This document shows, piece after piece, positions 26,779-58,605 of a stretch of DNA of 64,000 nt. The DNA lies in IMG/VR virus record IMGVR_UViG_3300045051_000014. One strand, given 5' to 3'. Below the pieces are notes generated by a model that was given only the letters and a program-made list of their open reading frames with translations, had not been told where the DNA came from and did not search any database. The first letter of the stretch is position 1; the number at the start of each line of letters is the position of its first letter. Origin of the DNA: a virus. Lineage: Duplodnaviria > Heunggongvirae > Uroviricota > Caudoviricetes. Made by a program: the position numbers and the translations under genes.

Positions 26779-26910
26779 GCGGCTTTCAGCCCTCACCCGC
26801 TAGCCTAGGATACCCCTAAATTTGCGCCTCGCTACGGGCTTCCTATTGCGTCCTACGCAATTTAACAATAATTGTTCACGTTTCCGGATGCGTTCATGTT
26901 TACTGAACAC

Positions 26911-26985
26911 CGTAAGTCCTTGATTTATAAGGCTTTTATAGTGAACAAACACCCCTCTCGTAAGTCATTGATTCTTAAAGGGTTT
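26911..26985 (+). repeat. two copies of intergenic element CGTAAGTCCTTGATT-N6-AGGGTT
   Basis: cgtaagtccttgatttataagg (26911-) and cgtaagtcattgattcttaaagggtt (26960-26985). Confidence 0.6.
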
Positions 26986-27025
26986 CCTGTGTTGCGTATT
27001 TGGGTGGTTTTGATATGATTAGAGT

Positions 27026-27322
27026 ATGGAAAGCAAACGTAAGACCCCGCGACTGGAAATCAACCTTCCTGCGATTACCATTGGTGATTGCATCAAGGCG
27101 TTCGACTTCGAACCCTGCAAGGGTCGCCCCGACATGTACGTTGTCGGCATCGTGAAGGATATCGGTTGGATTCGCAACGAATACATCGGTTTCACGATTG
27201 ACTGCGTGTACGACTCTGTGGCAGAATCGGTGAACAAGCCGGAATACTCGCGAGTCGGTCAGACGGTCTATGTGCCGGTCCAGACTCTTTTCGATTACGA
27301 CGGTCGCGTGACGCGCATCTAA
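27026..27322 (+). CDS. hypothetical early protein
   Basis: 98 aa ORF downstream of repeated intergenic element. Confidence 0.5.
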   Translation: MESKRKTPRLEINLPAITIGDCIKAFDFEPCKGRPDMYVVGIVKDIGWIRNEYIGFTIDCVYDSVAESVNKPEYSRVGQTVYVPVQTLFDYDGRVTRI

Positions 27323-27323
27323 T

Positions 27324-27563
27324 ATGACTACTCCCGTTCTCAAGTTCGCGTCGGTTGCGGAAGCGGTTGCTCACTTCCACGCGCAGGGTTTCAAGACCGT
27401 GTTGGAAAACGCGGGTCATTCAAAGTGCCGCCTCATGATGAAGCATGGCGATATCATGGTCATTCGGCACATGGGTCTTCTTGACGTTGAAGCGCATGAA
27501 GACGATGGTTTCTGGCAAGACAAGCTCACCGATTGGGCGAGCGATGGCGCGGAGTTCCTGTAA
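27324..27563 (+). CDS. hypothetical small protein
   Basis: 79 aa. Confidence 0.45.
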   Translation: MTTPVLKFASVAEAVAHFHAQGFKTVLENAGHSKCRLMMKHGDIMVIRHMGLLDVEAHEDDGFWQDKLTDWASDGAEFL

Positions 27564-27772
27564 TGTCTACTGGCAAGTATGCGGCGTATGAATATCACGG
27601 TGGTCCGTATGACCGTGGCAGTGCGGATTACTACTATTGGCGTCCGCGTCACCCGCACAAGTATCCGAATGGTACGTACAACGGTCCCGAAGTCACCGAC
27701 CTGACTCCGGAAGAAATCGAAGCGTACAATGCCGGTTACGATGAATGCAATGATCGAAAGGATTGGGGTTAA
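27563..27772 (+). CDS. hypothetical small protein
   Basis: start ATG 27563 overlapping upstream TAA. Confidence 0.45.
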   Translation: MSTGKYAAYEYHGGPYDRGSADYYYWRPRHPHKYPNGTYNGPEVTDLTPEEIEAYNAGYDECNDRKDWG

Positions 27773-27776
27773 TACC

Positions 27777-27974
27777 ATGGCTGAAAATAATGCTCTCAAG
27801 CTTGCTTCCGCGAGCGATATCAAGACTCTCATTCAGTGTGATGCGGTGACTCATGCCGAAGCACTGGAACGAGTCGATGCAGTCCTTGCACGCAAGGTCA
27901 TGACTGATGGCAAGCGTGCGCGATGGAATCGACTGCGCGAGTGGATCGTCAAGGCTCAAACTGAGGCAGCGTAA
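27777..27974 (+). CDS. hypothetical small protein
   Basis: 65 aa. Confidence 0.45.
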   Translation: MAENNALKLASASDIKTLIQCDAVTHAEALERVDAVLARKVMTDGKRARWNRLREWIVKAQTEAA

Positions 27975-36801: not shown

Positions 36802-36804
36802 ATT

Positions 36805-36830
36805 TGTAAGTCCTTGATTTCCAAAGGGTT
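36805..36830 (+). repeat. intergenic element TGTAAGTCCTTGATTTCCAAAGGGTT
   Basis: same consensus, upstream of AAA ATPase gene. Confidence 0.6.
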
Positions 36831-36904
36831 ATTGTTATTGCTTAATCTTACCTCTTCCTGTAGACTTATCTTATAGGTTGATGATTTTAAGCAAGGAATA
36901 ATAC

Positions 36905-39716: not shown

Positions 39717-39961
39717 TGAAACTACTTGACACCGCACAAACCAAATATCTCGACTCAATGGAGAAGCGTGCGTTCCCCGCGTGCTTCACCGGATCAAAAC
39801 AGTTTGAAGCGTGGCAGGAAGTCGAATCCATTGCACACACAAAGCCGCGTGCGCTCCCATGCCGGGACTGCGCGGTAGACTATCATAAGCGCATGGTCAT
39901 GGAAGGTCGCTGCGCATTGGCGGGAATCCCGAAGATCACCCGAATCATGGATAAGGCGTAA
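39716..39961 (+). CDS. hypothetical small Cys-containing protein
   Basis: 81 aa. Confidence 0.45.
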   Translation: MKLLDTAQTKYLDSMEKRAFPACFTGSKQFEAWQEVESIAHTKPRALPCRDCAVDYHKRMVMEGRCALAGIPKITRIMDKA

Positions 39962-39984
39962 CAGGAAGGCTCACAAGCCACGAT

Positions 39985-40062
39985 CCGAGGGTACCCGCTA
40001 CCCTAGCCTATCCGGACCCCAAAACCCGTCCTAGGGCTTCCTAGGCGGTCCTACGGGGCGCT
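39985..40062 (+). repeat. GC-rich ~80-bp module (ACCCGCTA..CCTAGG..GGCGGTCCTA) preceding the CGTAAGT element; paralogs at 26786-26880, 50330-50406, 58490-58579
   Basis: shared strings acccgctag, cctagg, gctacgggct, aggcggtcctag. Confidence 0.5.
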
Positions 40063-40136
40063 CGTAAGTCCTTGATTCTATTAGGGTTTTTACGGGTCAA
40101 ATAGCCCCTTCGTAAGTCCTTGATTTCGTTGGGGTT
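40063..40136 (+). repeat. two copies of CGTAAGTCCTTGATT-N6-(A/G)GGGTT element
   Basis: 40063-40088 and 40111-40136. Confidence 0.6.
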
Positions 40137-40197
40137 TTTCTTATTGCGTTATATCTCTTATCTTGCTAAGATGGTTATACAAGGTAAGGAAATAGAT

Positions 40198-40920
40198 ATG
40201 CTGAATCGCAAAGTCTCCGAATGGTCAAACACCGAATGCAAATTCGTGGATAAGGGTCGCGTGACTGAGCATGTCGGTCGCTCGCTTTACGTGGCGAACG
40301 AAACGGTCCAGATCATGTCGGACGTATGGGATACCGAAACGTTCCTGTATTCGATCCGCGACGATGGCACGCTTTCCCGCGATTGCGTCGGCTACTGCGA
40401 CAATCCGGAACTCAATCCGGTGTACGAAATCGACGCGACCGAAGAGGCGTTCGAACTCTATCGCGCCAAGCAGGAAGCGGACAAGTACGAATCGTTGGTG
40501 CATAACACCAATGCGGACTACGCGAATCCGGCATTCAAGGGTCGCGTTGTCAAGGTTGTCCGTGGGCGTAACGCTCCGGTCGGCAAGGTTGGCAAGGTTG
40601 TGGTCGTCATCGAACGTCCGTATGGCATGGGCTATCGCTCGGTCATGCGTCCGAAGCTCGGTATCGCGCTTTCCGCGAAGACGGTCGAAAAGGTCATGCC
40701 GAATGGTAAGGTCTTCCAGAACCATGCCGACATGATATGGGTTTGGGCGCACAATTGCGAAGTCGAAGTGCCGCAGACGGCAGACCTCGCGAAGTGCCGC
40801 CAGATGGCGCAGGATTTTGCGAAGTCTCAGGTGAAGGCGCTCCGTGCGCGTCAGGAAGAGGCGTTCAAGTATCATGCGCCGCGAATGCAGGGTTATCGTC
40901 GCGTAGTGGAATGGGCGTAA
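40198..40920 (+). CDS. hypothetical protein
   Basis: 240 aa; RBS AAGGAAA 7 nt upstream; downstream of repeated intergenic element. Confidence 0.55.
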   Translation: MLNRKVSEWSNTECKFVDKGRVTEHVGRSLYVANETVQIMSDVWDTETFLYSIRDDGTLSRDCVGYCDNPELNPVYEIDATEEAFELYRAKQEADKYESLVHNTNADYANPAFKGRVVKVVRGRNAPVGKVGKVVVVIERPYGMGYRSVMRPKLGIALSAKTVEKVMPNGKVFQNHADMIWVWAHNCEVEVPQTADLAKCRQMAQDFAKSQVKALRARQEEAFKYHAPRMQGYRRVVEWA

Positions 40921-41002
40921 AGCCTAAGAAAGACGGGCGAAAAGTTAAGCGGTTGATTGGCAAGGGATTTTTCGGGTTGACTTCTGACTAAATCTCTGTA
41001 GA

Positions 41003-41221
41003 ATGGTATACATGATGACGAAAAATGTGAAGCAGACGGTGCGCGAAGTCGCAACGGAACTTTCGATGCAGGGTTTCCTGCTAGAGCATGAAGTCACGTT
41101 GAAAGGCGATTGGGAATCGGCTAAGTTGGATAAGACCGTATTGTATGCGGTGGCATCCAAGTTGCAGGAACAAATCGCGGCTCTTCTGGTGGCGGCAGGA
41201 CAGGCAGAAAAAGATGCTTGA
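41003..41221 (+). CDS. hypothetical small protein
   Basis: 72 aa. Confidence 0.4.
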   Translation: MVYMMTKNVKQTVREVATELSMQGFLLEHEVTLKGDWESAKLDKTVLYAVASKLQEQIAALLVAAGQAEKDA

Positions 41222-41805: not shown

Positions 41806-41881
41806 GCAAGCGTCGTCTAACGGCTAGGATACTAGACTTTCAATCTGGAAGATGCGGGTTCGAATCCCGTCGCTTGCTCCA
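41806..41881 (+). tRNA. tRNA-Glu(TTC)
   Basis: manual fold: acceptor gcaagcg/cgcttgc, anticodon loop cTTTCaa, T-arm gcgggTTCGAATcccgt, CCA encoded. Confidence 0.75.
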
Positions 41882-42069
41882 ATTTTTCGGAGCGCGGTTA
41901 ATTCTCGCGTTCGAATACTGAGTCGGAAAAAGTCGGGGTTCAATTCCCTGTCATGCGCTTCGGTGTATGGTGGTGTAACGGCAGCACAGTTCCATTTGAG
42001 AGATTCGCGTCACCCGTCGCGACAAGCGAGGTCTGTAACAACAGGCTGAAATTACGGGTAATGAACAAT

Positions 42070-42145
42070 TCCGGGTTGACTAGAGTGGTAATAGCCGCGA
42101 CTGTTAATCGCGTATTCGTAGGTTCGATCCCTACACCCGGAGCCA
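42070..42145 (+). tRNA. tRNA-Asn(GTT)
   Basis: acceptor tccgggt/acccgga, anticodon stem cgcga/tcgcg loop ctGTTaa, T-loop TTCGATC, CCA. Confidence 0.75.
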
Positions 42146-42153
42146 ATTTTTAT

Positions 42154-42228
42154 GGTCCCTTGGTATAACGGCTATTATGCGAAGCTGTCTACTTCGCGAA
42201 ACGGGTTCGACTCCCGTAGGGATCGCCA
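42154..42228 (+). tRNA. tRNA-Asp(GTC)
   Basis: acceptor ggtccct/agggatc, anticodon loop ctGTCta, T-arm acgggTTCGACTcccgt, CCA. Confidence 0.65.
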
Positions 42229-42232
42229 ATTT

Positions 42233-42306
42233 GGGGAGTTAGTATAACGGGATTATTTCTCGCTTGCACCGAGAAGACAAGGGTTCGATTCCCTTACTCT
42301 CCACCA
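42233..42306 (+). tRNA. tRNA-Ala(TGC)
   Basis: acceptor ggggagt/actctcc with G3-U70, anticodon loop ctTGCac, CCA. Confidence 0.8.
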
Positions 42307-42311
42307 ATCAT

Positions 42312-42388
42312 GGGTCTGTCGTATAACGGCATATTATATTCGGCTCTTAACCGATAAGATTAGGGTTCGATTCCCTACAGACCCACCA
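42312..42388 (+). tRNA. tRNA-Lys(CTT)
   Basis: perfect acceptor gggtctg/cagaccc, loop ctCTTaa, T-loop TTCGATT. Confidence 0.7.
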
Positions 42389-42396
42389 ATTACTAT

Positions 42397-42927: not shown

Positions 42928-43002
42928 GCGGGTAAGGTGTTAATAGATACACGGCGGTCTTCCAAACCTCAGTTGTGGGCGCGATACCCACTACCCGCTC
43001 CA
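42928..43002 (+). tRNA. tRNA-Gly(TCC), T-loop CGCGATA
   Basis: acceptor gcgggta/tacccgc, loop ctTCCaa, discriminator U + CCA; resembles phage-type tRNA-Gly. Confidence 0.7.
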
Positions 43003-43131
43003 ATTTGCTCGTTGATCGGTGAGCCTGACGGCAGATCCGCAAATGTCAAATGCGTTGGTTCGCATTCCGGCTCTCTCCATACAGCGGGAGAGTATCGGGT
43101 AAGACGGTTCGATTCCGCAGCAAAACAATTT

Positions 43132-43207
43132 GTCCTCATAGCATAACGGAAAGTGCGTCGGGCTTCTACCCCGTTCGGTGTGGGTTCGATTCCTACTGAG
43201 GACACCA
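43132..43207 (+). tRNA. tRNA-Arg(TCT)
   Basis: perfect acceptor gtcctca/tgaggac, loop ctTCTac, T-arm gtgggTTCGATTcctac. Confidence 0.7.
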
Positions 43208-43213
43208 AATTAT

Positions 43214-43289
43214 GTTGGGTTAGTATAACGGCTATTACAGCAGTCTCCAAAACTGCACGATGGGAGTTCGAATCTCTCACCCAACGCCA
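43214..43289 (+). tRNA. tRNA-Trp(CCA)
   Basis: perfect acceptor gttgggt/acccaac, anticodon gcagt/actgc loop ctCCAaa, G73. Confidence 0.8.
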
Positions 43290-43301
43290 ATCACAAACAA
43301 T

Positions 43302-43379
43302 GGGACGTTGAAGGGAACTGGTATACCTTTCACGCTTAGAACGTGAAGCTTCTCGGTTCGAATCCGAGGCGTCCTACCA
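43302..43379 (+). tRNA. tRNA-Leu(TAG), class-I length, A73
   Basis: D aagg-gaactggtat-acct, anticodon tcacg/cgtga loop ctTAGaa, 5-nt variable, T-arm ctcggTTCGAATccgag. Confidence 0.6.
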
Positions 43380-43530
43380 ATGCATAGGTTGTCAACAAAC
43401 CTCAATAGACGTAAGAGAAAACCTTACGGTGATGAAATCGTGTTGAACGCACTCTTCATGCGTCATAGTCTTAAAGCGATAAGACAGGAGCGTTGTCTCG
43501 GATACGTAACCGGGGCGGCTATTCAACAAT

Positions 43531-43605
43531 GCCCTCTTAGTATAACGGAAAGAATACTTCGCTACGAACGAAGAGGTAGGGGTTCGATTCCCTTAGAGGG
43601 TACCA
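43531..43605 (+). tRNA. tRNA-Arg(ACG)
   Basis: anticodon cttcg/cgaag loop ctACGaa, T-loop TTCGATT. Confidence 0.7.
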
Positions 43606-43610
43606 ACATT

Positions 43611-43685
43611 GTCTCTGTAGTGTAATGGAAAACACGCAACTCTCCGAAGGTTGTAATTCAGGCTCGACTCCTGACAGGGACACCA
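43611..43685 (+). tRNA. tRNA-Arg(CCG), T-loop CTCGACT
   Basis: acceptor gtctctg/cagggac, anticodon caact/ggttg loop ctCCGaa. Confidence 0.65.
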
Positions 43686-43687
43686 AT

Positions 43688-43762
43688 GGTGATATCGTAC
43701 AACGGCTAGTACCGAAGTCTCATAAGCTTTTAATGATGGTTCGATTCCATCTATCACCACCA
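43688..43762 (+). tRNA. tRNA-Met or Ile2 (CAT), elongator-type
   Basis: perfect acceptor ggtgata/tatcacc (G1-C72 so not initiator), loop ctCATaa. Confidence 0.7.
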
Positions 43763-43768
43763 AATTAC

Positions 43769-43843
43769 GCCGAGTAAGCATTGCAAGCGATGCAGGGGTC
43801 TTGTAAGCCTCAGAATGCGGGGCAGTACCGCAACACGGCACCA
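43769..43843 (+). tRNA. tRNA-Thr(TGT), non-canonical T-loop GGCAGTA
   Basis: acceptor gccgagt/acacggc (one A-A mismatch), D gcat-tgcaagcg-atgc, loop ctTGTaa. Confidence 0.5.
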
Positions 43844-43848
43844 ACTAT

Positions 43849-43924
43849 GTAAGCGTGGCAGACCGGCAGATGCAGCAGGTTGCAACCCTGTTTTAAGTAG
43901 GTTCGACTCCTATCGCTTACTCCA
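43849..43924 (+). tRNA. tRNA-Cys(GCA)
   Basis: perfect acceptor gtaagcg/cgcttac, loop ttGCAac, U73, T-loop TTCGACT. Confidence 0.75.
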
Positions 43925-44020
43925 AACAAGCTGATGCGGGGTTCGACACCCCTGATGATCGCTAGAGGGTTGCAAACTTCTAACGACTAATGAAGGACGC
44001 TCATCGGCTCTAAACACAAT

Positions 44021-44094
44021 GCCCGATTCGTAAAATGGCATTACCTCGCTTTTACACGGCGAAGTTGGCAGTTCGATTCTGTCATCGGGTACCA
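44021..44094 (+). tRNA. tRNA-Val(TAC)
   Basis: acceptor gcccgat/atcgggt, D gtaa-aatggca-ttac, anticodon tcgct/ggcga loop ttTACac. Confidence 0.7.
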
Positions 44095-44165
44095 AACACA
44101 GCAAACGTTATGCGTTTCAAAGGGAGCGGCTGCAAAGCAAACTGGCTTCCACCAATTCAGACAAT

Positions 44166-44241
44166 AGCGGAAGGGTGAAACGGTTTACATTCTAGCCTCA
44201 TAAGCTAGAGACATTGGGTTCGACTCCCATGACCGCTACCA
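44166..44241 (+). tRNA. tRNA-Met(CAT)-like with imperfect acceptor (5 bp + AA/GA mismatches at 6-67,7-66)
   Basis: anticodon ctagc/gctag loop ctCATaa, T-loop TTCGACT, ACCA end. Confidence 0.45.
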
Positions 44242-44247
44242 AACAAT

Positions 44248-44328
44248 GTCCCAAAGAGAGCGAACGGAACGCCTGTTGCCATTGGCAATGCAAGCTAGCT
44301 ACGGTTTCGATGCCGTTGCGGGACACCA
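44248..44328 (+). tRNA. tRNA-like element, anticodon undetermined (possible pseudogene)
   Basis: acceptor gtccc(aa)/(gc)gggac + ACCA, aacgg D-loop, no clean 7-nt anticodon loop, odd T-region tttcgatg. Confidence 0.3.
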
Positions 44329-44333
44329 ATTAC

Positions 44334-44407
44334 GTCCGATTAGCTTAAAAGTGAAGCACCGTGCTGATAACGCGGAGAAGTAGGAGCATTACCTACATTG
44401 GACACCA
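44334..44407 (+). tRNA. tRNA-Ile(GAT), T-loop AGCATTA
   Basis: acceptor gtccgat/attggac, D gctt-aaaagtg-aagc, anticodon ccgtg/cgcgg loop ctGATaa (canonical Ile loop). Confidence 0.6.
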
Positions 44408-44512
44408 ACTACATTCAGCGCACAAACTCTTGCCATTTAAACGGGCGAGTATGCAGAGTGCGGTCCTGCGTCAACAGGGCGAAGCGATTTTGACGAATCG
44501 TAGACTGCGTGC

Positions 44513-44587
44513 GCCGCCATAGTATAATGGTCATTACAAGGTCTTGGTAAGACTTGAATCACAGTTCGATTCTGTGTGGTGGCACCA
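44513..44587 (+). tRNA. tRNA-Thr(GGT)
   Basis: acceptor gccgcca/tggtggc, loop ttGGTaa, T-arm cacagTTCGATTctgtg. Confidence 0.75.
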
Positions 44588-44592
44588 ACAAT

Positions 44593-44678
44593 GCGGAAGT
44601 AGCCTAGCGGTTAGGCACTTGCTTGCCAAGCAAGAGTGCGAAAGCCAAACGCGAGTTCGAATCTCGTCTTCCGCTCCA
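44593..44678 (+). tRNA. tRNA with anticodon GCC (Gly) but 86 nt with ~16-nt variable region
   Basis: perfect acceptor gcggaag/cttccgc, class-II-like D-arm gcc-tagcggtta-ggc, anticodon cttgc/gcaag loop ttGCCaa, extra agtgcgaaagccaaac before T-arm. Confidence 0.5.
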
Positions 44679-44679
44679 A

Positions 44680-45279
44680 TTAGCGTGGATCGTACCTGTA
44701 ATCAGAATGATACATGTTGACGATCCCGCGTCTTAGCTCAGAAGTAAGTTCAAGGTTAGGTATGAAGTTCGGCTTTTCGTTTTCAACGGGAATGTCGATT
44801 GCCATGCCGCCGAAGATACCAATGAGTTTTCTGGCTTCCGATTCGAAGTCATGAAAGTTGAGAACGTTCATGTTAGGATGATCAAACCAATCGGACTGCG
44901 GCTTGAAGCCAATAATGTCGGTGCGTTGAATCCTCTCTAGCAGACGATCCGGATGATTCATCTTATCTCTTAGATGTTGCGGAAGAGCGTTGTATGATTC
45001 TTCATCCAACGGTTCCGGCATACGAATACCAGTGAATGATTCGGGAAACAGTTTGATCAGGACGGTTCGATACGTGCGCAGAAAGTTGTACGCGGATACG
45101 AAACGTTCTACAGGGTCACGCCAGAAAGCGTAACCACTTGAATCTAAATACGCAGTGCTTGGAGTCTCATGCAGACTTCCGACATTCCTGCCGTAAGGTT
45201 TCAATAAGTTTCGAATGGTAGTCGAACCAGTTTTCGGCACCAGATAGAATGCGTGCTTGTTGTCATGACTAATGATCAT
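44680..45279 (-). CDS. sulfotransferase-family protein (PAPS-binding PKTGSTT motif)
   Basis: N-terminal FYLVPKTGSTTIRNLL resembles sulfotransferase 5'-PSB loop; only sizeable minus-strand gene, embedded in tRNA array. Confidence 0.55.
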   Translation of the reverse strand: MIISHDNKHAFYLVPKTGSTTIRNLLKPYGRNVGSLHETPSTAYLDSSGYAFWRDPVERFVSAYNFLRTYRTVLIKLFPESFTGIRMPEPLDEESYNALPQHLRDKMNHPDRLLERIQRTDIIGFKPQSDWFDHPNMNVLNFHDFESEARKLIGIFGGMAIDIPVENEKPNFIPNLELTSELRRGIVNMYHSDYRYDPR

Positions 45280-45439
45280 GCACGTATTTAGGGGAAGATC
45301 ATGAACTTCGAAAGAAACAGAGCATATTACTGGCGGCAGGCGCGAGCATGTTTCAAAGCCGGTTTCAAGTTCCTTCGAAGAGCAATCTTCCTTCCAAAAA
45401 GATAATGTCTCTTAAGCTAATCTAGTGAAAGCGCAGGTC

Positions 45440-45590
45440 TGAAAAGCCTGATAGGTTGGAGCGTAACCAACAGGGGACACCAGTTTCGGGATGTTTACAG
45501 CAAACCAAATACCTCGCCAAATCTGAGGGGCTGTCCAATGGGGACTGTGCGCTAGGGTTCGAATCCCTGCCTACTAGCACAACCATCCCG
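45440..45590 (+). ncRNA. tRNA-like / Y RNA-like module (ACAGCAAACCAAAT + T-arm-like GGTTCGAATCCC, no CCA)
   Basis: motif at 45497-45510; hairpins cctc..gagg, gtcc-aatg-ggac; TTCGAAT T-loop at 45557-45571 without matching acceptor. Confidence 0.4.
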
Positions 45591-45775
45591 TCTAATTGAT
45601 TGTCGCGTCACTGAAATTGAACGTGCGGACATATCGCAGCACTGAGGACATATGTTATTCCCCGCGTGGGCGAGCTTGGAGTCTTCTGCCGACAATCAAC
45701 TTTATAGAGTCAACGGATGAAATGACCTCCCTTGTGGTGCGGCAATAGCCGTATAAAAAATCCGTCGAATTCAAT

Positions 45776-45852
45776 GCACCGGTCTTCTAATAGGATAGGA
45801 AAACAGGTTCTCAACCTGTGCAATGACGGTTCGAATCCGTTCCGGTGTACCA
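45776..45852 (+). tRNA. tRNA-Glu(CTC)
   Basis: acceptor gcaccgg/ccggtgt, anticodon acagg/cctgt loop ttCTCaa, T-loop TTCGAAT. Confidence 0.65.
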
Positions 45853-45859
45853 AACATAA

Positions 45860-45934
45860 CAGGATGTAAGTCAACAGCAGACGACCTCGCTTGGAACGAG
45901 GAGGCAGTAGGGGCAGCACCTACCATCCTGACCA
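45860..45934 (+). tRNA. tRNA-Pro(TGG) second copy, T-loop GGCAGCA
   Basis: perfect acceptor caggatg/catcctg, anticodon cctcg/cgagg loop ctTGGaa. Confidence 0.55.
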
Positions 45935-45986
45935 ATTCATACTACATAGTAGACCATATGGACTACTTTGTAGTCCAAAGATCAAT

Positions 45987-46063
45987 GGTAAGTGTAGCAT
46001 AGTGGCTAATGCCCAAGACTGTGAATCTTGAAGACGCGGGTTCGAATCCCGTCGCTTACCCCA
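45987..46063 (+). tRNA. tRNA-His(GTG) with encoded G-1
   Basis: extra 5' G pairing with C73, loop ctGTGaa, T-arm gcgggTTCGAATcccgt. Confidence 0.75.
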
Positions 46064-46083
46064 AACACAAATGGAGCGAAACC

Positions 46084-46269
46084 ATGGCTGCGAAGAACGA
46101 TGTAACAGGTGATAGTATCAAAACTAAGACTGGCAATCCTGATGCGTATGCAAAGGGTTGGGATCGAATCTTCGGCAGTAAACGAACAAAGGACCGTACA
46201 CCTTCCGGTGAGCTTGCTGAACCGGTGCGCCGCAGGGCTGCGAACAAAGTACGGGCTAAGAACAATTGA
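46084..46269 (+). CDS. small basic protein (61 aa) nested between tRNA genes
   Basis: ATG with GGAG RBS 7 nt upstream; MAAKNDVTGDSIKTKTGNPDAYAKGWDRIFG... Confidence 0.35.
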   Translation: MAAKNDVTGDSIKTKTGNPDAYAKGWDRIFGSKRTKDRTPSGELAEPVRRRAANKVRAKNN

Positions 46270-46350
46270 TGGGTTGACGGTGCCGGTAACTGTCCCTAGT
46301 CTTTGAAACTAGTGCATTGCGCGTAGGTTCGACTCCTACCCCATCAGCCA
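46267..46350 (+). tRNA. tRNA-Gln(TTG) with enlarged D-loop and 10-nt variable region
   Basis: perfect acceptor tgatggg/cccatca, anticodon ctagt/actag loop ctTTGaa, T-arm gtaggTTCGACTcctac. Confidence 0.5.
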
Positions 46351-46616
46351 ATTTGCCTCTAGAGCAAAAACAACGAGTCATGTTACGTTGTAAAATAAGA
46401 ACATGCAACCATGTGCTGAAAGCAGACGGCTAACGTGCTGTCTCTCTAGCACCCACCGTTGTAGGTGGGAGTGCGGAGTGGAGTAAGAGTGGTGGTAGTA
46501 ATTGATTCCGAGATAGTTCAATAGGCAGAACAACCTCACGCTAAGAGGGAGACAGGGTTCGAATCCCACCGGAATTAGTGGCGCGGCTTCCAAGAATACC
46601 AAACGCGCCCAACTTT

Positions 46617-46690
46617 TCTCCTCTCGTCTAACGGCAGGACGCAACGCTCTGAACGTTGCTATCGTGGTTCGAATCCATGGGGGAGAGCCA
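46617..46690 (+). tRNA. tRNA-Gln(CTG)
   Basis: acceptor tctcctc/ggggaga, D gtct-aacggca-ggac, anticodon caacg/cgttg loop ctCTGaa. Confidence 0.7.
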
Positions 46691-46699
46691 AATTTAAAT

Positions 46700-46787
46700 G
46701 GAAGGTTGTCCGAGAGGCTTATGGACCCTGTTTGCTAAACAGTGGGGCGTTAAAACCACACAGGTTCGAATCCTGTACCTTCCGCCA
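46700..46787 (+). tRNA. tRNA-Ser(GCT), class II
   Basis: perfect acceptor ggaaggt/accttcc, G73, loop ttGCTaa, long variable arm, T-arm acaggTTCGAATcctgt. Confidence 0.7.
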
Positions 46788-46795
46788 AAACAAAT

Positions 46796-46883
46796 GGAAG
46801 ATTGACCGAGAGGCTTATGGTTCCCGCTTGGAAAGCGGTGAGATGTAAAAGTCACGCAGGTTCGAATCCTGCATCTTCCGCCA
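46796..46883 (+). tRNA. tRNA-Ser(GGA), class II
   Basis: perfect acceptor ggaagat/atcttcc, G73, anticodon ccgc/gcgg loop ttGGAaa, long variable arm. Confidence 0.7.
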
Positions 46884-47001
46884 AATGCAGTATAGGAAAG
46901 TATCCGAATCCAAGAGAGCCTATACCTCGCTGACGGATTCAGCCGCGCTACGTGTTGAAATGCACGGTAAAGCCGACGCGGACAAAAGTAATCGGCACAT
47001 T

Positions 47002-47075
47002 CGTCCCTTAGTATAGAAGCAATACGTTGCCTTGACATGGCAGAAAAGATGGAGCGTTACCATCAGGGACGACCA
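47002..47075 (+). tRNA. tRNA-Val(GAC), T-loop AGCGTTA
   Basis: perfect acceptor cgtccct/agggacg, D gtat-agaagca-atac, anticodon ttgcc/ggcag loop ttGACat. Confidence 0.6.
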
Positions 47076-47080
47076 ATTAT

Positions 47081-47168
47081 GGAAGGTTGGCAGAGAGGCT
47101 AATTGCCGCTGTTTCGAAAGCAGATGGGTGTAAAAACCACACAGGTTCAAATCCTGTACCTTCCGCCA
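47081..47168 (+). tRNA. tRNA-Ser(CGA), class II
   Basis: paralogous to Ser(GCT) gene (same acceptor and T-arm), loop ttCGAaa. Confidence 0.65.
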
Positions 47169-47173
47169 GATAT

Positions 47174-47250
47174 GCGAGTGTGATGTAACTGGCAAACGTG
47201 TTCGGCTCAAACCCGAATTTCTGTGGGTTCGAATCCCACCACTCGCACCA
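47174..47250 (+). tRNA. tRNA-Leu(CAA), class-I length, A73
   Basis: perfect acceptor gcgagtg/cactcgc, anticodon ttcgg/ccgaa loop ctCAAac, 5-nt variable, T-arm gtgggTTCGAATcccac. Confidence 0.65.
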
Positions 47251-47255
47251 ACTAC

Positions 47256-47332
47256 GCGCCTATGACGGAACAGGCATACGTCTAACGTTGAGAACGTTAG
47301 TTTTGTGGGTTCGAATCCCACTAGGCGCACCA
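47256..47332 (+). tRNA. tRNA-Leu(GAG), class-I length, A73
   Basis: perfect acceptor gcgccta/taggcgc, anticodon taacg/cgtta loop ttGAGaa, same T-arm as Leu(CAA). Confidence 0.65.
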
Positions 47333-47624
47333 ATTTACTGAGTCGAGCTAACGCAGGCAACTGAGGAAGTTCGCGACTCACGCAGGAATCGTGTGGGAGC
47401 CGAAAGGCGTCTTACCACCGTGATATAGTGAGCAACACAAACAGAGCGTGGGAAATTCCTGCCTATACGTTCGGGTTGTGGCAAAGATGAATGTTAGCAT
47501 AGAACAGAATCGCGGCTACGGACTCAGTAATTCGAAATAGCTAACCCATACGTGTCAAAAGGATATGTCCGAAACAAGCGTAATTCGAATGAGGCTTGTT
47601 AGACGGTGGGTTGGCGGTACCTAT

Positions 47625-47701
47625 ACCCTTGTAGTTTCAACGGACAGAACACCCCGGTCCTAACGGGTCCAATGCAGGTTCGAATCCTGTCAAGGGTACC
47701 A
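47625..47701 (+). tRNA. tRNA-Arg(CCT)
   Basis: perfect acceptor acccttg/caagggt, loop gtCCTaa, T-loop TTCGAAT. Confidence 0.6.
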
Positions 47702-47709
47702 CACATTAC

Positions 47710-47784
47710 GCCGCCATCGTATAATGGCTATTACGGATGTTTCGTAAGCATCCTATCTCAGTTCGACTCTGAGTGGCGGCACCA
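47710..47784 (+). tRNA. tRNA-Thr(CGT)
   Basis: acceptor gccgcca/tggcggc, anticodon gatgt/gcatc loop ttCGTaa, T-loop TTCGACT. Confidence 0.75.
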
Positions 47785-49744: not shown

Positions 49745-50323
49745 GTGTGTTTTATGACTCCTAAGATTCTAATTGCAGACAGCGCAGGCAACCCTAAAGA
49801 TTGGGTTTCTCTTGACTACGCAACCCACTACCTCGCATCCGATAAGGTTGTGTGGCAGGCAGGTTCGATCATCAAGACCTACCGTGGCGGCTACAATGCT
49901 GCGACGGGCGAACGCTCGACTCTGGACATTCACTCCATCCTAGGTATTTCCGGTAAGCTGCTAGGCGACAAGTTCTTCACCAGAACTTCCGTCTACACCG
50001 ACCGTGAGATTCTCTACGCTCGCGACAGATACCTCTGCGCGTACTGTGGAGAAGAGTTCGATGCGTACAAGCTTACCATCGACCACGTAATGCCGCAGTC
50101 TCGCGGTGGACGTAACGTTTGGCAGAACTGTGTTACTGCGTGCAAGACATGCAACCACAAGAAAGCCGACCGCACGCCAGAAGAGGCGAAGATGAAGTTG
50201 CTGTATGTTCCATACGCTCCTAACATGTTCGAAAAGATGATTCTTAAGAACCGCAACATCCTTGCGGATCAGATGGACTTCCTCAAGGCTCGCGTCCCTA
50301 AGACCTCTAGAGTCTTCCTGTAA
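49745..50323 (+). CDS. HNH endonuclease
   Basis: CAYCG...TIDHVMPQSRGG...NCVTACKTCNHKK HNH/zinc motif. Confidence 0.7.
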   Translation: MCFMTPKILIADSAGNPKDWVSLDYATHYLASDKVVWQAGSIIKTYRGGYNAATGERSTLDIHSILGISGKLLGDKFFTRTSVYTDREILYARDRYLCAYCGEEFDAYKLTIDHVMPQSRGGRNVWQNCVTACKTCNHKKADRTPEEAKMKLLYVPYAPNMFEKMILKNRNILADQMDFLKARVPKTSRVFL

Positions 50324-50406
50324 GCCGTTCGGCAGGCTCCCTAGGCTACCCTACCGGTGCCTAGGTGCGCCCCGCTACGGGCTTTATAGGCGGTCCTAGG
50401 GCATAT

Positions 50407-50432
50407 CGTAAGTTGTTGATTTATAAGGGGTT
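50407..50432 (+). repeat. intergenic element CGTAAGTTGTTGATTTATAAGGGGTT
   Basis: consensus copy followed by TATAAT box and ORF 50474. Confidence 0.55.
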
Positions 50433-50473
50433 GAAACACTTGTGTTTTAGCCCCTTTTTGCTATAATGGTTGT

Positions 50474-52769: not shown

Positions 52770-53094
52770 TATGAGTCTTGATGTAAGTCTTGTTAAAGTG
52801 ATGCCAACCGAAATCTATTCGGACAACATCACCCATAATTTGAATAAGATGGCACAGGAAGCCGGATTGTATGACGCACTCTGGCGACCTGATGAAAACG
52901 GTCTTACGACTGCGGCTGATCTTATTCCATTTCTGGAAGAGGGATTGCGCAAGCTTTGTGCAGACCCCGCACACTATGAGCAATTCAATCCGGCAAACGG
53001 GTGGGGTAGCTACGTTGGTTTGAAGGTATTCGTCCGCGACTACCTAGAAGCCTGCCGTGCCAATCCGGATGCAAAAGTAGAAGTGAGTAGATAA
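52759..53094 (+). CDS. hypothetical protein
   Basis: 111 aa. Confidence 0.45.
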   Translation: MKCNMSLDVSLVKVMPTEIYSDNITHNLNKMAQEAGLYDALWRPDENGLTTAADLIPFLEEGLRKLCADPAHYEQFNPANGWGSYVGLKVFVRDYLEACRANPDAKVEVSR

Positions 53095-53095
53095 C

Positions 53096-53521
53096 ATGCG
53101 TAAAGAATTAGACGATGCATTGTGTGAAAAGTATCCCAAGATTTTCGAACAGAGACATTGGGATATGAGCAAGACCTGTATGTGTTGGGGATTCCCCGGT
53201 GACGGGTGGTACGACATTCTCGACAACCTTTGCGGTGCCATTCAGGACTATTGCGATAACGTGAAACGCTACGATGAAGAGACTAAGCTATTGGTTCCGG
53301 CTTGCAAGCAAGTTGTGGCAACACAAGTCAAAGAGAAGTTCGGTGAACTCCGTTTCTACTTCGAAGGTGGAAACGAGACTATTCATGGAATGATAACAAT
53401 GGCAACCTACATGAGCAAGCGCACCTGCGAAGAGTGTGGTAAGCCGGGAAAGATTCGTCCCGGTGGATGGGTTCGAACCCTCTGCGATAAGCACGCGAAG
53501 AGAAAGCATGTTCGTTCTTAA
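53096..53521 (+). CDS. hypothetical Cys-rich protein
   Basis: 141 aa, CEECGKPGK. Confidence 0.45.
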   Translation: MRKELDDALCEKYPKIFEQRHWDMSKTCMCWGFPGDGWYDILDNLCGAIQDYCDNVKRYDEETKLLVPACKQVVATQVKEKFGELRFYFEGGNETIHGMITMATYMSKRTCEECGKPGKIRPGGWVRTLCDKHAKRKHVRS

Positions 53522-53900
53522 TAAGAAAGACCTAGAGTACAGTTGGTTCTCCGGTACGGGTGCCGGTGGGCAGCACAGGAACAAGCACATGAATTGCTTG
53601 CGCCTCAAGCATGTCCCATCCGGCATTCAGACGACCGGACAGAATCATCGGGATCGAATCTCTAATGAGCGTGAAGCCATGGAGAAGTTGATCGCTCGCG
53701 TGCGCTCGTTCTATCATCCCGAAGTGCAGAAGGAACGCTTCCGCGCAAAGGAACAGGTTCGTTCTTATCGCGAGCCTGACAACATCGTGAAGGATCATGC
53801 ATCCGGCGAAGTGTTCTCTTACAAGGAAATCGTCTTAGATGCGGACCCCGAAGAATTAGAAAAAGCCATGGCAGCAAGGCGCAATGCGCTAAGTGCCTGA
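53508..53900 (+). CDS. peptidyl-tRNA hydrolase / ArfB-like class-I release-factor-domain protein (GGQ motif)
   Basis: SGTGAGGQHRNKHMN GGQ motif; ~130 aa like ArfB/YaeJ. Confidence 0.7.
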   Translation: MFVLNKKDLEYSWFSGTGAGGQHRNKHMNCLRLKHVPSGIQTTGQNHRDRISNEREAMEKLIARVRSFYHPEVQKERFRAKEQVRSYREPDNIVKDHASGEVFSYKEIVLDADPEELEKAMAARRNALSA

Positions 53901-53921
53901 TTGTTAAGCTAGATTACATGC

Positions 53922-53950
53922 TTGACTTTTCCATGAACATCGTGAGATAA
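53922..53950 (+). promoter_or_regulatory. sigma70-like promoter TTGACT-N17-GATAAT upstream of DNA ligase
   Basis: -35 53922-53927, -10 53945-53950. Confidence 0.5.
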
Positions 53951-53957
53951 TAGTAAT

Positions 53958-55476: not shown

Positions 55477-55942
55477 GGAACTCTGCAATCGCGTGCTTTC
55501 GCTTTGTGATTCGTGGACATGGAAGCGATACGATTTCCAGAGTCCATCGGGCATACCGTTCCACTATAGCGGCAGTGCTGTACGCAGAAACGATCCACTC
55601 TATAAGGAACTGTTGGACTATCTTCTACAGGTAGAACCAGAATTTGCGAACTACGATGTTTCCATATCCATCAACAAATATGAAGTTGGTGACTATATGG
55701 GTAAGCATCGGGATCGAATGCCAACACGACTGCGCACCTTTCTAGTCCAGTTGAGCGAACCTTCCTCTTATGAAGGTGGCGACTTGACGGTAGATGATAA
55801 GATCAGTTCAAGAGAACAAGGCGCGACCAACACATTTGATTCACAGGAAGTCTGGCACTCAGTAGGCAAAGTTCTAAGTGGAATTAGATACAGCATCGTC
55901 TTTTGGGGTTACAAGAAAGAGCTTGACAGTTCCACCGATTAG
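55469..55942 (+). CDS. 2OG-Fe(II) oxygenase, prolyl 4-hydroxylase-like (paralog of 34242-34802)
   Basis: HRDRMP (HxD) ... YEGGDLTV ... H. Confidence 0.65.
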   Translation: MNKELCNRVLSLCDSWTWKRYDFQSPSGIPFHYSGSAVRRNDPLYKELLDYLLQVEPEFANYDVSISINKYEVGDYMGKHRDRMPTRLRTFLVQLSEPSSYEGGDLTVDDKISSREQGATNTFDSQEVWHSVGKVLSGIRYSIVFWGYKKELDSSTD

Positions 55943-55951
55943 CTATATACT
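55923..55951 (+). promoter_or_regulatory. sigma70-like promoter TTGACA-N17-TATACT upstream of natV-nadV
   Basis: GCTTGACAGTTCCACCGATTAGCTATATACT; same GATTAG..TATACT architecture. Confidence 0.55.
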
Positions 55952-56001
55952 ATTAGGCAGAGGATAGACCTCTACCGTTTTTACTCTAAGGGAGCCTTAG
56001 A

Positions 56002-57063
56002 ATGACAAGCCAAACGCACATGTCCGTGTTCATCGGACGTTTTCAGCCGCCGCACAAGGCGCACATTGACACCATTCGGTACGCACTGAAATTCTCCGAC
56101 AAGGTGCTAATTCTAATCGGATCCGCATTCAAGCCATCCGACACTCGCAATCCGTTTTCTCATATCGAACGCAGTCACATGATCAAGACTTGCTTCGATG
56201 CTGACGTTCAAAAGCGTCTTATCTTCGACTATATCTCCGACCATCCATACAACGATCTTGCGTGGGTGAAGAATGTCCAGACTGCCATCGACAATGCTTA
56301 CTACAATAACTTCGGTTGGCAGGACAAGCAGGACATTACTCTGATTGGACACCACAAAGACGAGTCCTCTTACTACCTCGACCTGTTCCCGTCTTACAAG
56401 CAAGCCGAAATGGAAAACCTGTACGGTCTGGATTCCACGAACATTCGTGGACTCTGGTTCGCAGGCAAGGATGCGTGGAAGAACGGCAACATGAAACTGG
56501 TATCACACTCCGTTCCGCAGCCTGTCATGATTCATCTGAATGAAGTCATGAAGGAAGATCGCTACCAGACGCTAGTGAAGGAATACGAGTTTCTGCGCAC
56601 CTACAAGCTACAGTGGTCGCAGGCTCCGTATCCGCCAACCTTTGTCACCGCAGACGCAGTAGTGTCCTGCCTCGGTCACGTTCTACTGGTACAGCGCAAG
56701 GCTGCGCCGGGAGAGGGACTGTGGGCATTGCCGGGAGGCTTCCTCAATCAGTACGAAACGGTGCGTGAGTGCGCCGCTCGCGAACTAGAGGAAGAGACTA
56801 AGATCAAGGTGCCACCCGCACGGCTGCGCGGTTCGATTCGCACAGAGAAGCGATACGATCATCCCGGCAGAAGCCTGCGTGGACGCACGATCACCACCGC
56901 ATTCCACTTCGACCTCTTTGGCGAACGCTCGCTTCCGAAGGTCAGGGGTTCCGACGATGCTGCCGCAGCACGATGGTTCCCTCTCAACGAACTTGTTCGA
57001 CTACAGGACAAGATGTATGAAGATCACTACCATATCGTAACTGATCTTCTCGGCTTGGGTTGA
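56002..57063 (+). CDS. natV: bifunctional NMN adenylyltransferase / Nudix hydrolase (NadM-Nudix)
   Basis: FIGRFQPPHKAH (HxGH), Nudix box GGFLNQYETVRECAARELEEETKI. Confidence 0.85.
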   Translation: MTSQTHMSVFIGRFQPPHKAHIDTIRYALKFSDKVLILIGSAFKPSDTRNPFSHIERSHMIKTCFDADVQKRLIFDYISDHPYNDLAWVKNVQTAIDNAYYNNFGWQDKQDITLIGHHKDESSYYLDLFPSYKQAEMENLYGLDSTNIRGLWFAGKDAWKNGNMKLVSHSVPQPVMIHLNEVMKEDRYQTLVKEYEFLRTYKLQWSQAPYPPTFVTADAVVSCLGHVLLVQRKAAPGEGLWALPGGFLNQYETVRECAARELEEETKIKVPPARLRGSIRTEKRYDHPGRSLRGRTITTAFHFDLFGERSLPKVRGSDDAAAARWFPLNELVRLQDKMYEDHYHIVTDLLGLG

Positions 57064-57105
57064 AGATAGACTTCGACTCGTTTTCAAATGTTAAGGAGTT
57101 TAACA

Positions 57106-58475
57106 TGCGTACCAACTTACTACTAAACACAGACTCGTACAAGGCTTCCCACTGGCTCCAATACCCACCGGGAACAGAGTACGTCTATTCATACATCGAA
57201 TCTCGCGGCGGTCTTCATGACGCGACCGTGTTCTTCGGTCTACAGGCATTCATCAAGGAATACCTCACCGAATCCATCTGCCTCAAGGATATCTACGAAG
57301 CGAAGGAATTCTTTGAGGCACATGGCGAGCCGTTCCACTTCCACGGATGGAACTACATTCTGCGCAAGCACAATGGATATCTGCCGGTGCGTATCTCCGC
57401 GCTGCCAGAAGGAATGCGCGTGCCTGTCGGTACGCCGCTAGTCACCATCGTCAACACGGACCCTGAGTGCTTCTGGCTTACATCGTATCTGGAAACCGCA
57501 CTGCTTCGCGCAGTCTGGTATCCGACGACCGTTGCGACAATCTCACACTACATCAAGACGATCATCAAGCGCGAACTGGAAGACACTGGCGATGTTGCCG
57601 GTCTGCCGTTCAAGCTGCATGACTTCGGTGCGCGTGGCGTATCATCCAATGAATCTTCGATGCTAGGTGGCATGGCGCATCTGGTCAACTTCCAAGGCTC
57701 CGACACCGTAATGGGTATCGTCGGCGCGAAGCGTTGGTACAACGAGCCAATGGCAGGCTTCTCCATTCCGGCAGCAGAACACTCCACGATTACTACATGG
57801 GGTAAGACTCGCGATGGTGAGACTGCGGCATACGCCAACATGGTAGCCAAGTATGGTAAGCCGGGAACGATCTTCGCGGTTGTCTCCGACTCCTACGATA
57901 TCTACAAGGCGTGCGAAGAGATTTGGGGTGGAACGCTCAAGCAGCAAGTCATCGACTCCGGTGCGACTCTCGTAGTCCGTCCTGACTCTGGTGATCCGGT
58001 TGCAGTCACACTTCGCTGCATTCAGATCCTTGACGAGAAGTTCGGTCACACGGTCAACGCGAAGGGATTCAAGGTTCTCAATCACGTTCGACTGATTCAG
58101 GGTGACGGTGTGAACCCAAGTTCCATCGAAGCCATCCTGATGAACTTCAAGGCGCATGGCTACAGCGCAGACAACATTGCGTTCGGCATGGGCGGCGCGT
58201 TGCTACAGCACATGAACCGCGACACGCAGGAGTTCGCAATGAAGGCGAGCGCAATCCGAGTCAACGGCGAATGGCGCGATGTATCGAAGTCGCCAATCGG
58301 TCAGGCTTCGAAAAAGTCGAAGGGTGGACGGTTCACTGTAACATGGGACCGCGACGGTTGGCAGACGATGCCACTGGACGAGACTGTGGAGAATATGTTA
58401 AGTCCGGTCTTCGAAGACGGCAAGCTTTTGCGGGATACGTCTTTTGCACAGGTACGGTATAACAGCACCCTGTAA
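57106..58475 (+). CDS. nadV: nicotinamide phosphoribosyltransferase
   Basis: N-terminal NLLLNTDSYKASHW and overall NAMPT architecture, 456 aa. Confidence 0.85.
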
Positions 58476-58579
58476 GACTAATAGGAGCCGTCTGGCAGGC
58501 TTTTGGGGAGTACCCGCTAGGGTAGCCTAGGGTACCCCAAATAGCCCCAAAACGCCCTATAAGCGGTCCTAGAGGCACC

Positions 58580-58605
58580 CGTAAGTGCTTGATTCTATTA
58601 GGGTT
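58580..58605 (+). repeat. intergenic element CGTAAGTGCTTGATTCTATTAGGGTT
   Basis: consensus copy after nadV. Confidence 0.55.

Follow-up and report, generated by a model that had tools for sequence, protein, structure and literature searches.

T4-type phages carry promoter early stem-loops (PeSLs), repeats in which a promoter and a terminator are combined (Arbiol et al. 2010, PMC2839356; Comeau et al. 2014, PMC4122927); these mediate modular shuffling and exchanges (PMC4122927). We analyzed a 64,000-nt stretch of the Caudoviricetes record IMGVR_UViG_3300045051_000014 (the whole stretch is referred to below as the window), in which a short element containing the 15-mer CGTAAGTCCTTGATT is repeated and in several places follows a GC-rich segment; L-numbers denote the other contigs and loci with which it was compared. 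Taking the whole picture together, we put the probability at roughly 0.6 that these repeats are integration host factor (IHF)-assisted sigma-70 promoter cassettes of the PeSL type.

A sequence-only reading of the window had listed seven copies of the element (26911, 26960, 36805, 40063, 40111, 50407, and 58580), written as CGTAAGTCCTTGATT-N6-AGGGTT; all seven were found, on the plus strand, the copy given as 26960 beginning at 26959 once the C of CGTAAG is included. That literal pattern, allowed up to 3 mismatches, recovers 3 copies, and none in 100 shuffles; it finds just 3 because the spacer before GGG is 6 to 7 nt long and the second half of the element is degenerate. With the 14-mer GTAAGTCCTTGATT at 3 mismatches or fewer, all seven were recovered, and this search combined with inspection of sigma-70-like promoters located three more, degenerate copies at 40944 (TTAAGCGGTTGATT), 53888 (CTAAGTGCCTGATT), and 58617 (CTAAGTTACTGATT). 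Each of the ten copies is intergenic or at a gene end, and each is on the coding strand. They are confined to 26.9 to 58.6 kb, amid small open reading frames (ORFs) and tRNAs, and the element is absent from positions 1 to 26 kb of the window and from 10 kb of core replication genes upstream. The positional bias of the element is strong, as is its strand bias, in keeping with the intergenic placement that had been described.

Downstream of the element, the copies share a second sequence at a fixed distance. Every one of the seven promoter-proximal copies has a −35-like hexamer that begins at element position 34 (35 for the copy at 53888); in order, the hexamers are TTGCGT, TTGCTT, TTGCGT, TTGACT, TTGTGT, TTGACT, and TTGCAT, and each is followed after 16 to 18 nt by a −10 of the form TAnnnT or GATAAT, twice with a TG-n extension. 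We consider it very probable, from the sequence pattern, that a sigma-70-type promoter lies 18 bp downstream of TTGATT. The three distal copies (26911, 40063, and 58580) do not have a core promoter; each precedes a proximal copy, by 48, 48, and 37 bp, respectively. The distal–proximal spacing seen in relatives is 46 to 48 bp or 37 bp, two classes one helical turn apart. The same −35 register is seen in the relatives L005, L121, and L286–L292, as well as in contigs with little or no other likeness to the window (L037, L050, L085, L111, and L191). Among 347 motif instances, 31 have TTG at position 34, compared with a background of ∼7 per position, and 21 of these 31 have TAnnnT at the proper spacing. 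In three-way footprints of the window, L121, and L128, the −10 and the start region are invariant. Relative to these promoters, the whole CGTAAGTCCTTGATT-N6-AGGGTT unit spans ∼−70 to −36 and TTGATT falls at ∼−60 to −55, so it is not a −35.

This arrangement bears directly on the earlier proposal of a phage-encoded or phage-modified RNA polymerase that would use the element as its promoter and TTGATT as a −35-like box; in such a model, AGGGTT would be a downstream box. TTGATT does agree with TTGACA at 4 of 6 positions, a good −10 follows TTGATT by 16 to 18 nt in 7 of 169 instances in other viral contigs (∼1.6 expected), and the three distal copies do not have any other recognizable promoter. 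In the window, however, no copy has a usable −10 (TAnnnT) at 16 to 18 nt after TTGATT, and a canonical, sigma-70-type −35/−10 pair stands at a fixed distance in 7/7 proximal copies and in the relatives; with such a pair at a fixed register there is no call for a phage-encoded or re-specified RNA polymerase. We found no RNA polymerase or sigma gene among the window proteins scanned. Nor did the description of the element as phage-specific hold, as the motif also occurs in hundreds of other viral contigs and in plasmids and bacterial chromosomes. A specificity peculiar to a phage polymerase is ruled out by this breadth, which takes in unrelated phages of many hosts, and we regard the special polymerase as extremely unlikely. 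What survives of the composite unit first described is a module after the upstream gene joined to a promoter for the downstream genes; the assignment of TTGATT as its promoter box does not.

The region between −70 and −36 has the features of a binding site for IHF. A canonical IHF site has four elements, namely WATCAA, TTR, two AA steps 9 bp apart, and a 5′ A-tract, and the two AA (or TT) steps 9 bp apart are the proline-intercalation sites (PMC1874591). The reverse complement of the 15-mer, AATCAAGGACTTACG, holds the exact IHF core WATCAANNNNTTR, and on the opposite strand the whole element reads A-tract … AA/TT … AATCAA-N4-TTA. We counted 12 occurrences of the core WATCAANNNNTTR in the window, where 2.2 would be expected; 0 of 100 shuffles reached this number, and 8 of the 12 are element copies; it is exact in 8/10 copies, the exceptions being AATCAG (58617) and AATCAGG/TTAG (53888). 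Nine of the ten copies fit the 35-bp register of the lambda H′ site, and that at 53888 needs a 1-nt shift. In these nine, AATCAA or AATCAG occupies positions 19 to 24, TTA positions 29 to 31, and AA or TT positions 14 to 15, the last being nine bp upstream of the AA of ATCAA. The A-tract (positions 5–10) is AAAAAC, AAAAAT, AAAAAG, or ATAAAA in five copies and a partial AATAAC in two more, and is weak at 26959, 50407, and 53888; the AGGGTT(TTT) of the earlier description is the complement of the A-tract plus its neighbors; positions 24 to 28 are T-rich across viral contigs. Orthologous cassettes differ at N1N2 of the IHF consensus and in the N6 spacer, and an unbiased scan likewise showed N1N2 to be the part of the core that varies freely. 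From these features we infer that the element is a binding site for the host IHF.

The components of the individual cassettes and their immediate setting are as follows.

26786–26860, plus strand: GC module copy 1, 8 nt past the stop at 26778, placed by alignment of the modules.
26861–26908: 48-nt spacer with small palindromes, between module 1 and the element at 26911.
26909–26943, minus strand: distal IHF-type site (element 26911), with ATAAAA/TT/AATCAA/TTA in the H′ register and no −35/−10 at position 34.
26957–26991, minus strand: proximal IHF-type site (element 26959), AATCAATGACTTA, with the exact WATCAANNNNTTR, 48 bp downstream of the distal site.
26992–27019, plus strand: predicted sigma-70-type promoter, TTGCGT, 16 nt, TATGAT, with a TG-n extended −10; ATG at 27026.
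36803–36837, minus strand: single IHF-type site (element 36805), directly past the stop at 36801.
36838–36866, plus strand: predicted sigma-70-type promoter, TTGCTT, 17 nt, TAGACT; gene start at 36905; layout kept in L290 and L291.
39985–40060, plus strand: GC module copy 2, with TCCTAsG three times at a spacing of 10 to 11 bp.
40061–40095, minus strand: distal IHF-type site (element 40063), CCGTAAAAACCCTAATAGAATCAAGGACTTACGAG, which has all four consensus elements when set against lambda H′.
40109–40143, minus strand: proximal IHF-type site (element 40111), 48 bp from the distal site.
40144–40172, plus strand: predicted sigma-70-type promoter, TTGCGT, 17 nt, TAAGAT, heading small ORFs and the 32-tRNA array; its L291 orthologue is TTGTGT, 16 nt, TATACT.
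40942–40976, minus strand: degenerate IHF-type site (element 40944), AATCAACCGCTTA.
40977–41004, plus strand: predicted sigma-70-type promoter, TTGACT, 16 nt, TAGAAT.
50330–50404, plus strand: GC module copy 3, directly past the HNH homing-endonuclease gene at 49745–50323.
50405–50439, minus strand: single IHF-type site (element 50407), AATCAACAACTTA; L121 differs at N1N2 and at one spacer base.
50425–50461, plus strand: intrinsic-terminator hairpin and T-run from a terminator scan; the hairpin (50425–50456) has 14 pairs, −20.2 kcal/mol, z = −5.2, overlaps the −35 and spacer of the next promoter, and shows compensatory stem changes in L121.
50440–50467, plus strand: predicted sigma-70-type promoter, TTGTGT, 16 nt, TATAAT; in L121, TTGACT, 17 nt, TATAAT.
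53886–53951, plus strand: most degenerate copy (element 53888) and its promoter; AATCAGGCACTTAG on the minus strand, then TTGACT, 18 nt, GATAAT.
58500–58577, plus strand: GC module copy 4 (z = −2.1), which follows the stop of the NAMPT gene at 58475 and includes the long hairpin GGGGAGTACCCGCTAGG-GTAG-CCTAGGGTACCCC.
58578–58612, minus strand: distal IHF-type site (element 58580), AATCAAGCACTTA, invariant in L121 and L128.
58615–58649, minus strand: proximal IHF-type site (element 58617), AATCAGTAACTTA, 37 bp from the distal site.
58650–58677, plus strand: predicted sigma-70-type promoter, TTGCAT, 16 nt, TATACT, with an extended −10, upstream of the ORF-free region 58684–59025.

No hairpin was found at the cassettes at 36805, 40944, and 53888. 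In the mechanism that we propose, a complete cassette would have three parts: a ∼75-nt GC- and CTAG-rich module after the upstream gene, which may act as a terminator, an RNA 3′-end, or an insulator; one or two ∼34-bp sites for host IHF; and a promoter of the host sigma-70 type whose −35 begins exactly 18 bp after TTGATT. IHF bound at ∼−70 to −36 would impose a U-turn centered near −54, which would fold the upstream DNA onto RNA polymerase and could thereby boost promoters with an imperfect −35 (TTGCNT). Where there is a second site, 3.5 or 4.5 helical turns upstream, it would add an oppositely phased bend. Promoters with an IHF-type site mostly have TTGCNT as their −35, and the −35 consensus of promoters without such a site is TTGACA.

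The promoters without a site form a second class. Near-consensus TTGACA-17-TATACT promoters are present at 32332, 41331, 55923, and 60890 (and 49690) of the window, in the conserved frame aaATTAGAC-TTGACA-N8-GATTAGTCTG-TATACT and without an IHF-type site, and their repeated (G)ATTAG(A/T)C boxes have an operator-like look. Three of the cassettes have an ATG 6 nt past the predicted −10, at 27026 (TATGAT-TAGAGT-ATG), 50474 (TATAAT-GGTTGT-ATG), and 53958 (GATAAT-AGTAAT-ATG), and the layout is retained in relatives. This suggests leaderless mRNAs at the three positions; the coding status of the ORF at 50474 is doubtful. Other promoter types and binding sites were also considered. A sigma-54 promoter was rejected on finding no GG-N10-GC downstream of any proximal copy, and a T4 MotA middle promoter on finding no TGC[T/G]T-N13-15-TAnnnT, the spacing to the −10 being that of the sigma-70 type. 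By eye, none of the boxes for sigma-32, sigma-E, Fis, CRP, NtcA, CtrA, or DnaA fits.

To place the motif in a wider context, we used several scans. The exact 15-mer gave at least 110 distinct matches in IMG/VR. Since ∼100 chance matches are expected, lone 15-mer matches are uninformative, and it is their flanks and the multi-copy loci that establish a family: among the matches listed (110 distinct), the flanks are non-random (T-T-W-A-W-G-G … T-rich), and, again among the matches listed, 43/120 loci contain extra copies. A second scan in which three positions were freed (n = 117 viral instances) returned T at position 7 in 108/117, with positions 8 and 9 variable. The contexts include iteron arrays, a DnaA box, the iteron region of a P2-like Pseudomonas phage, the integrase-adjacent intergenic region of Burkholderia phages, and the iteron origin of small E. 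coli plasmids; iteron, DnaA-box, and integrase-adjacent settings are typical of IHF sites. In GTDB (185,579 species genomes), the exact 22-mer CGTAAGTCCTTGATTTWWAWGG is present 36 times against ∼1 expected, and 31 of the 36 occurrences are in Proteobacteria sensu lato, Nitrospirota, or Nitrospinota. A literature search on the motif string returned unrelated primers only. Judged from its distribution, the spread of the motif fits a conserved host architectural protein, for which IHF is the obvious candidate. Separately, the unrelated viral contig L052 (IMGVR_UViG_3300049489_000428) has the motif at 706, 1449, and 4111, where it precedes another conserved box, GGTCATCTATATGA, at a fixed distance in three intergenic regions; this arrangement could be an IHF-assisted promoter of another type.

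These same surveys bear on the question of whether a different sequence-specific protein, either a phage activator or repressor or another host factor, binds the 30-mer at a class-I-type site near −55. The retention of T at position 7, together with that of GG at positions 21 to 22 and of the flanking C, would suit such a protein, as would a palindromic subset of the form TAAGTCC-N11-GGACTTA and the tandem, phase-locked sites, which are typical of cooperative regulators. The motif, however, extends across phages, plasmids, and chromosomes of Alpha-, Beta-, and Gammaproteobacteria, a breadth that argues for a universal host protein; most copies have the IHF-site elements in the lambda H′ register; and IHF does not read the positions that vary. 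A tblastn search with E. coli HU, IhfA, and IhfB found no HU/IHF-like gene in the window or in the related contigs examined. We consider a different binding protein unlikely.

The GC-rich segment upstream of the element is real, and it is homologous at each of the four places that had been named (26786–26860, 39985–40060, 50330–50404, and 58500–58577), in every case after a gene stop (26778, 39961, 50323, and 58475), with its start 8 to 25 nt past that stop, or 7 nt past it at the HNH gene. The modules are ∼75 nt long and are also present in the related contigs L005, L014, L121, L123, L124, L128, and L286–L292. CTAG is scarce across the window (149 observed versus 248 expected) yet clustered in the modules. 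Three blocks recur: CCCGCTAGG(C/G)TA(G/C)CCTA; GCGCC(T/C)CGCTACGGGCTT; and TCCTAGG-N4-TCCTA(G/C)GG, which forms direct repeats ∼10 to 11 bp apart. Local hairpins within the modules show compensatory changes between the window and L121, for example GCCCCGCTACGGGC versus GCCTCACCAGAGGC. With Rfam, tRNAs alone reach the gathering threshold over the window, and nothing meaningful was found in 39940–40220 at E ≤ 10 or in 58450–59150 at E ≤ 1. A terminator or insulator role for the module is plausible. It could be a terminator, an RNA 3′-end protector, an insulator, or a protein-binding region brought to the polymerase by the IHF bend; among these, we rank a terminator or 3′-end role first as the probable one, because of the analogy to PeSLs.

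Several points weigh against the interpretation of the cassettes as IHF-assisted promoters of the PeSL type. The modules have no common fold across paralogues, RNAalifold on 8 modules returning a 4-bp TAGG/CCTA helix without covariation, and their folding energies are weakly better than those of shuffles (z −0.7 to −2.1). They do not have U-tracts, which makes the terminator role a guess. The presence of IHF in the host is an assumption. The motif is tighter than the E. coli IHF consensus, with CG before TAAG, GT at N3N4, and CC beside the kink step, and conservation beyond the IHF consensus makes another factor or an added constraint possible. Finally, an IHF footprint that abuts the −35 could produce repression instead of activation.

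A hint of an additional constraint comes from bacterial genomes, where at least 17 of 35 copies adjoin a tRNA or tmRNA gene that lies on the other strand, at its CCA end, and where 13/35 have an AAGGACYYACG arm upstream, giving on the tRNA strand a hairpin and then a T-run. Examples from the GTDB loci L138–L172 are L163:1480–1624, L168:430–545, and L159:560–700, and the lineages include Beta-, Alpha-, and Zetaproteobacteria, Nitrospirota, Desulfobacterota, and others. An integrated element at these flanks was considered and rejected; no integrase was found among the neighbors checked, most of which have housekeeping or regulatory functions (NAD-dependent ligase, sigma factor, and sigma-54 activator among them) or do not have a Pfam match. 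The regularity keeps alive both a constraint beyond IHF and an RNA-level explanation, in which a hairpin would serve as a (bidirectional) terminator or as a processing signal, the element would form its 3′ arm and its U-rich tail, and no bending protein would be involved. The bacterial copies with a partner arm and T-run look like plausible tRNA terminators, the distal copy makes a good hairpin in L005 and L014, and the fold of the copy at 40063 has an energy of −12.8 kcal/mol (z = −2.0). For most window copies, on the other hand, the energies (−0.7 to −5 kcal/mol, z −0.4 to +1.5) are not better than those of shuffles, and the window copies do not have an upstream partner arm, which is present in 4/117 viral instances (9/117 are tRNA-adjacent). 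The N1N2 changes are uncompensated, and the motif is antisense to tRNAs yet sense to phage genes, an orientation that a DNA-level site fits better than an RNA signal. We therefore hold an explanation at the RNA level to be quite improbable.

A related possibility is that the ∼30-bp super-consensus C-GTAAGT-YR-TTGATTT-WWAA-GG-n-TTTT is more than a good IHF site: a distinct, widely mobile DNA module, or the site of an unrecognized conserved factor, with the CTAG-rich module as a second new, clade-specific element working with it. It would link three contexts, namely phage promoters at a fixed register, plasmid and phage iteron origins, and the 3′ flank of tRNA/tmRNA genes, where it would be half of a terminator hairpin. 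We give this possibility little credence.

The cassettes are dispersed direct repeats in a plastic region of small ORFs and tRNAs, and they would be likely substrates for PeSL-type recombinational shuffling. Compared with L121, homology breaks in or beside cassettes: 53084–53942 is replaced, and there is an insertion at 55921/55923. It might be argued that the repeats are kept mainly as recombination substrates or by concerted evolution and that the 30-mer has no regulatory role of its own, the points in favor being the dispersed direct repeats in a plastic region, the coincidence of indel and replacement boundaries with cassettes, and the documented PeSL-mediated exchange (PMC4122927). However, the same motif-to-−35 register is seen in L050, L085, and L111, which otherwise do not have blastn similarity to the window, and between orthologues the motif is better conserved than its flanks, which indicates selection on the sequence itself. 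A purely recombinational role is, in our judgment, very unlikely.

The phage itself does not have a close cultured relative, as a nucleotide search of INPHARED (50,697 records) gave tRNA matches only. It is present on contigs of 169 and 172 kb, and on the 172-kb contig a family-B polymerase (gp43 polB), UvsX (with a T4_UVSX_C domain), and a gp41-type helicase are encoded directly upstream of the window sequence. Essentially all genes of the window are on the plus strand, including one for a gp61-type primase with ∼40% identity to cyanophage gp61; its other proteins include a class II ribonucleotide reductase (RNR), NAMPT, NadM, an RnlA-like ligase, and an Rz-like spanin. By virtue of the gp61-type primase, gp43 polB, UvsX, and gp41-type helicase, we classify the phage from its gene content as a novel T4-like myovirus of ∼170 kb. 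The Rz-like spanin, an RNR nearest to the roseophage and HMO-2011 enzymes, and a faint match to a GTA holin are hints that the host may be a proteobacterium. ARAGORN found an array of 32 tRNA genes at 41806–47784, and there are additional Rfam tRNA matches at 44166, 44334, and 45407. The set is unusually complete for a ∼170-kb T4-like phage, and one tRNA-Ile(tat), with a length of 95 nt, may contain an insert.

Two further features of the genome were observed. The ORF-free region at 58684–59025 (plus strand) ends in a hairpin, GGCGGGACAG…CTGTCCCGCC, followed by GAATTT; it has blocks of 100% identity with L121 and L128, an RNAalifold structure of 82 pairs of which 17 are kept via two-sided changes, and no Rfam match at E ≤ 1. 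We regard it as a candidate for a novel structured phage RNA of ∼340 nt, which would be read from the promoter at 58650–58677. In positions 1 to 26000 of the window and in L136, a nucleotide-sugar biosynthesis cluster (DegT aminotransferase, two epimerases, NTP transferase, cytidylyltransferase, and an FkbM methyltransferase/glycosyltransferase fusion) is interspersed with replication genes and may serve DNA or virion glycan modification.

T4 itself is not known to use IHF. If the IHF-assisted promoter reading is true, the promoter cassettes of an environmental T4-like lineage have come to incorporate a DNA-bending protein of the host, held in a constant helical register, and they would offer a simple, testable model for how weak −35 promoters could be strengthened or, during takeover, coupled to the physiology of the host. 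Being near-invariant, the motif also provides a sequence tag by which promoters, origins, and possibly hosts (IHF-bearing Proteobacteria) could be recognized in contigs of uncultured phages. The link to tRNA 3′ flanks is an unexplained regularity that merits a systematic survey.

The cassettes can be compared with several known systems. With the T4 MotA middle promoters (PmSLs in phage nt-1), they share hexamers, TTGCTT and TTGCGT, that contain a TGCTT-like MotA-box core; the −10, however, follows the hexamer by 16 to 18 nt, which is not the MotA register. With lambda attP H′, the canonical IHF site, they share the A-tract, the AA/TT kink step, WATCAA, and TTR in identical register. Relative to E. 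coli IHF sites, the motif is far more uniform, and IHF binding here is predicted. IHF-stimulated promoters such as lambda PL with its distant UP element, Mu Pe, and Pseudomonas Pu likewise have the site upstream of the promoter on a fixed helical face, whereas the site in our cassettes abuts the −35 (∼−70 to −36), closer than in these classic cases; in contrast to both H′ and the classic promoters, tandem sites here are 37 or 46 to 48 bp apart. RIB/RIP (BIME-1) elements, which in E. coli are located where transcription units end (3′), have REP palindromes on either side of an IHF site. These share with the cassettes GC-rich palindromic units beside an IHF consensus site, right after stops, but the GC module of the cassettes is one-sided, and the element is phage-borne and fused to a promoter.

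The best match, on sequence features, is to the PeSLs. In common are the T4-like genome; the short terminator/promoter cassettes that form direct repeats between small ORFs in hyperplastic regions; the sigma-70-like −35/−10 pair ∼17 bp apart, as in the phage nt-1 type (TTGYVH-N17-TAWWAT); and indels between near relatives at cassettes. A stem-loop of the kind that in PeSLs precedes or overlaps the promoter is clear at one cassette (50425–50456). The cassettes differ from PeSLs in that one or two IHF-type sites, set at a fixed register, stand where an AT-rich region usually precedes the −35, so that the −70 to −36 region is AT-rich in the A-tract alone, and in that four of them contain a long, 75-nt, CTAG-rich GC module, which is new and does not have a single conserved hairpin or U-tract.

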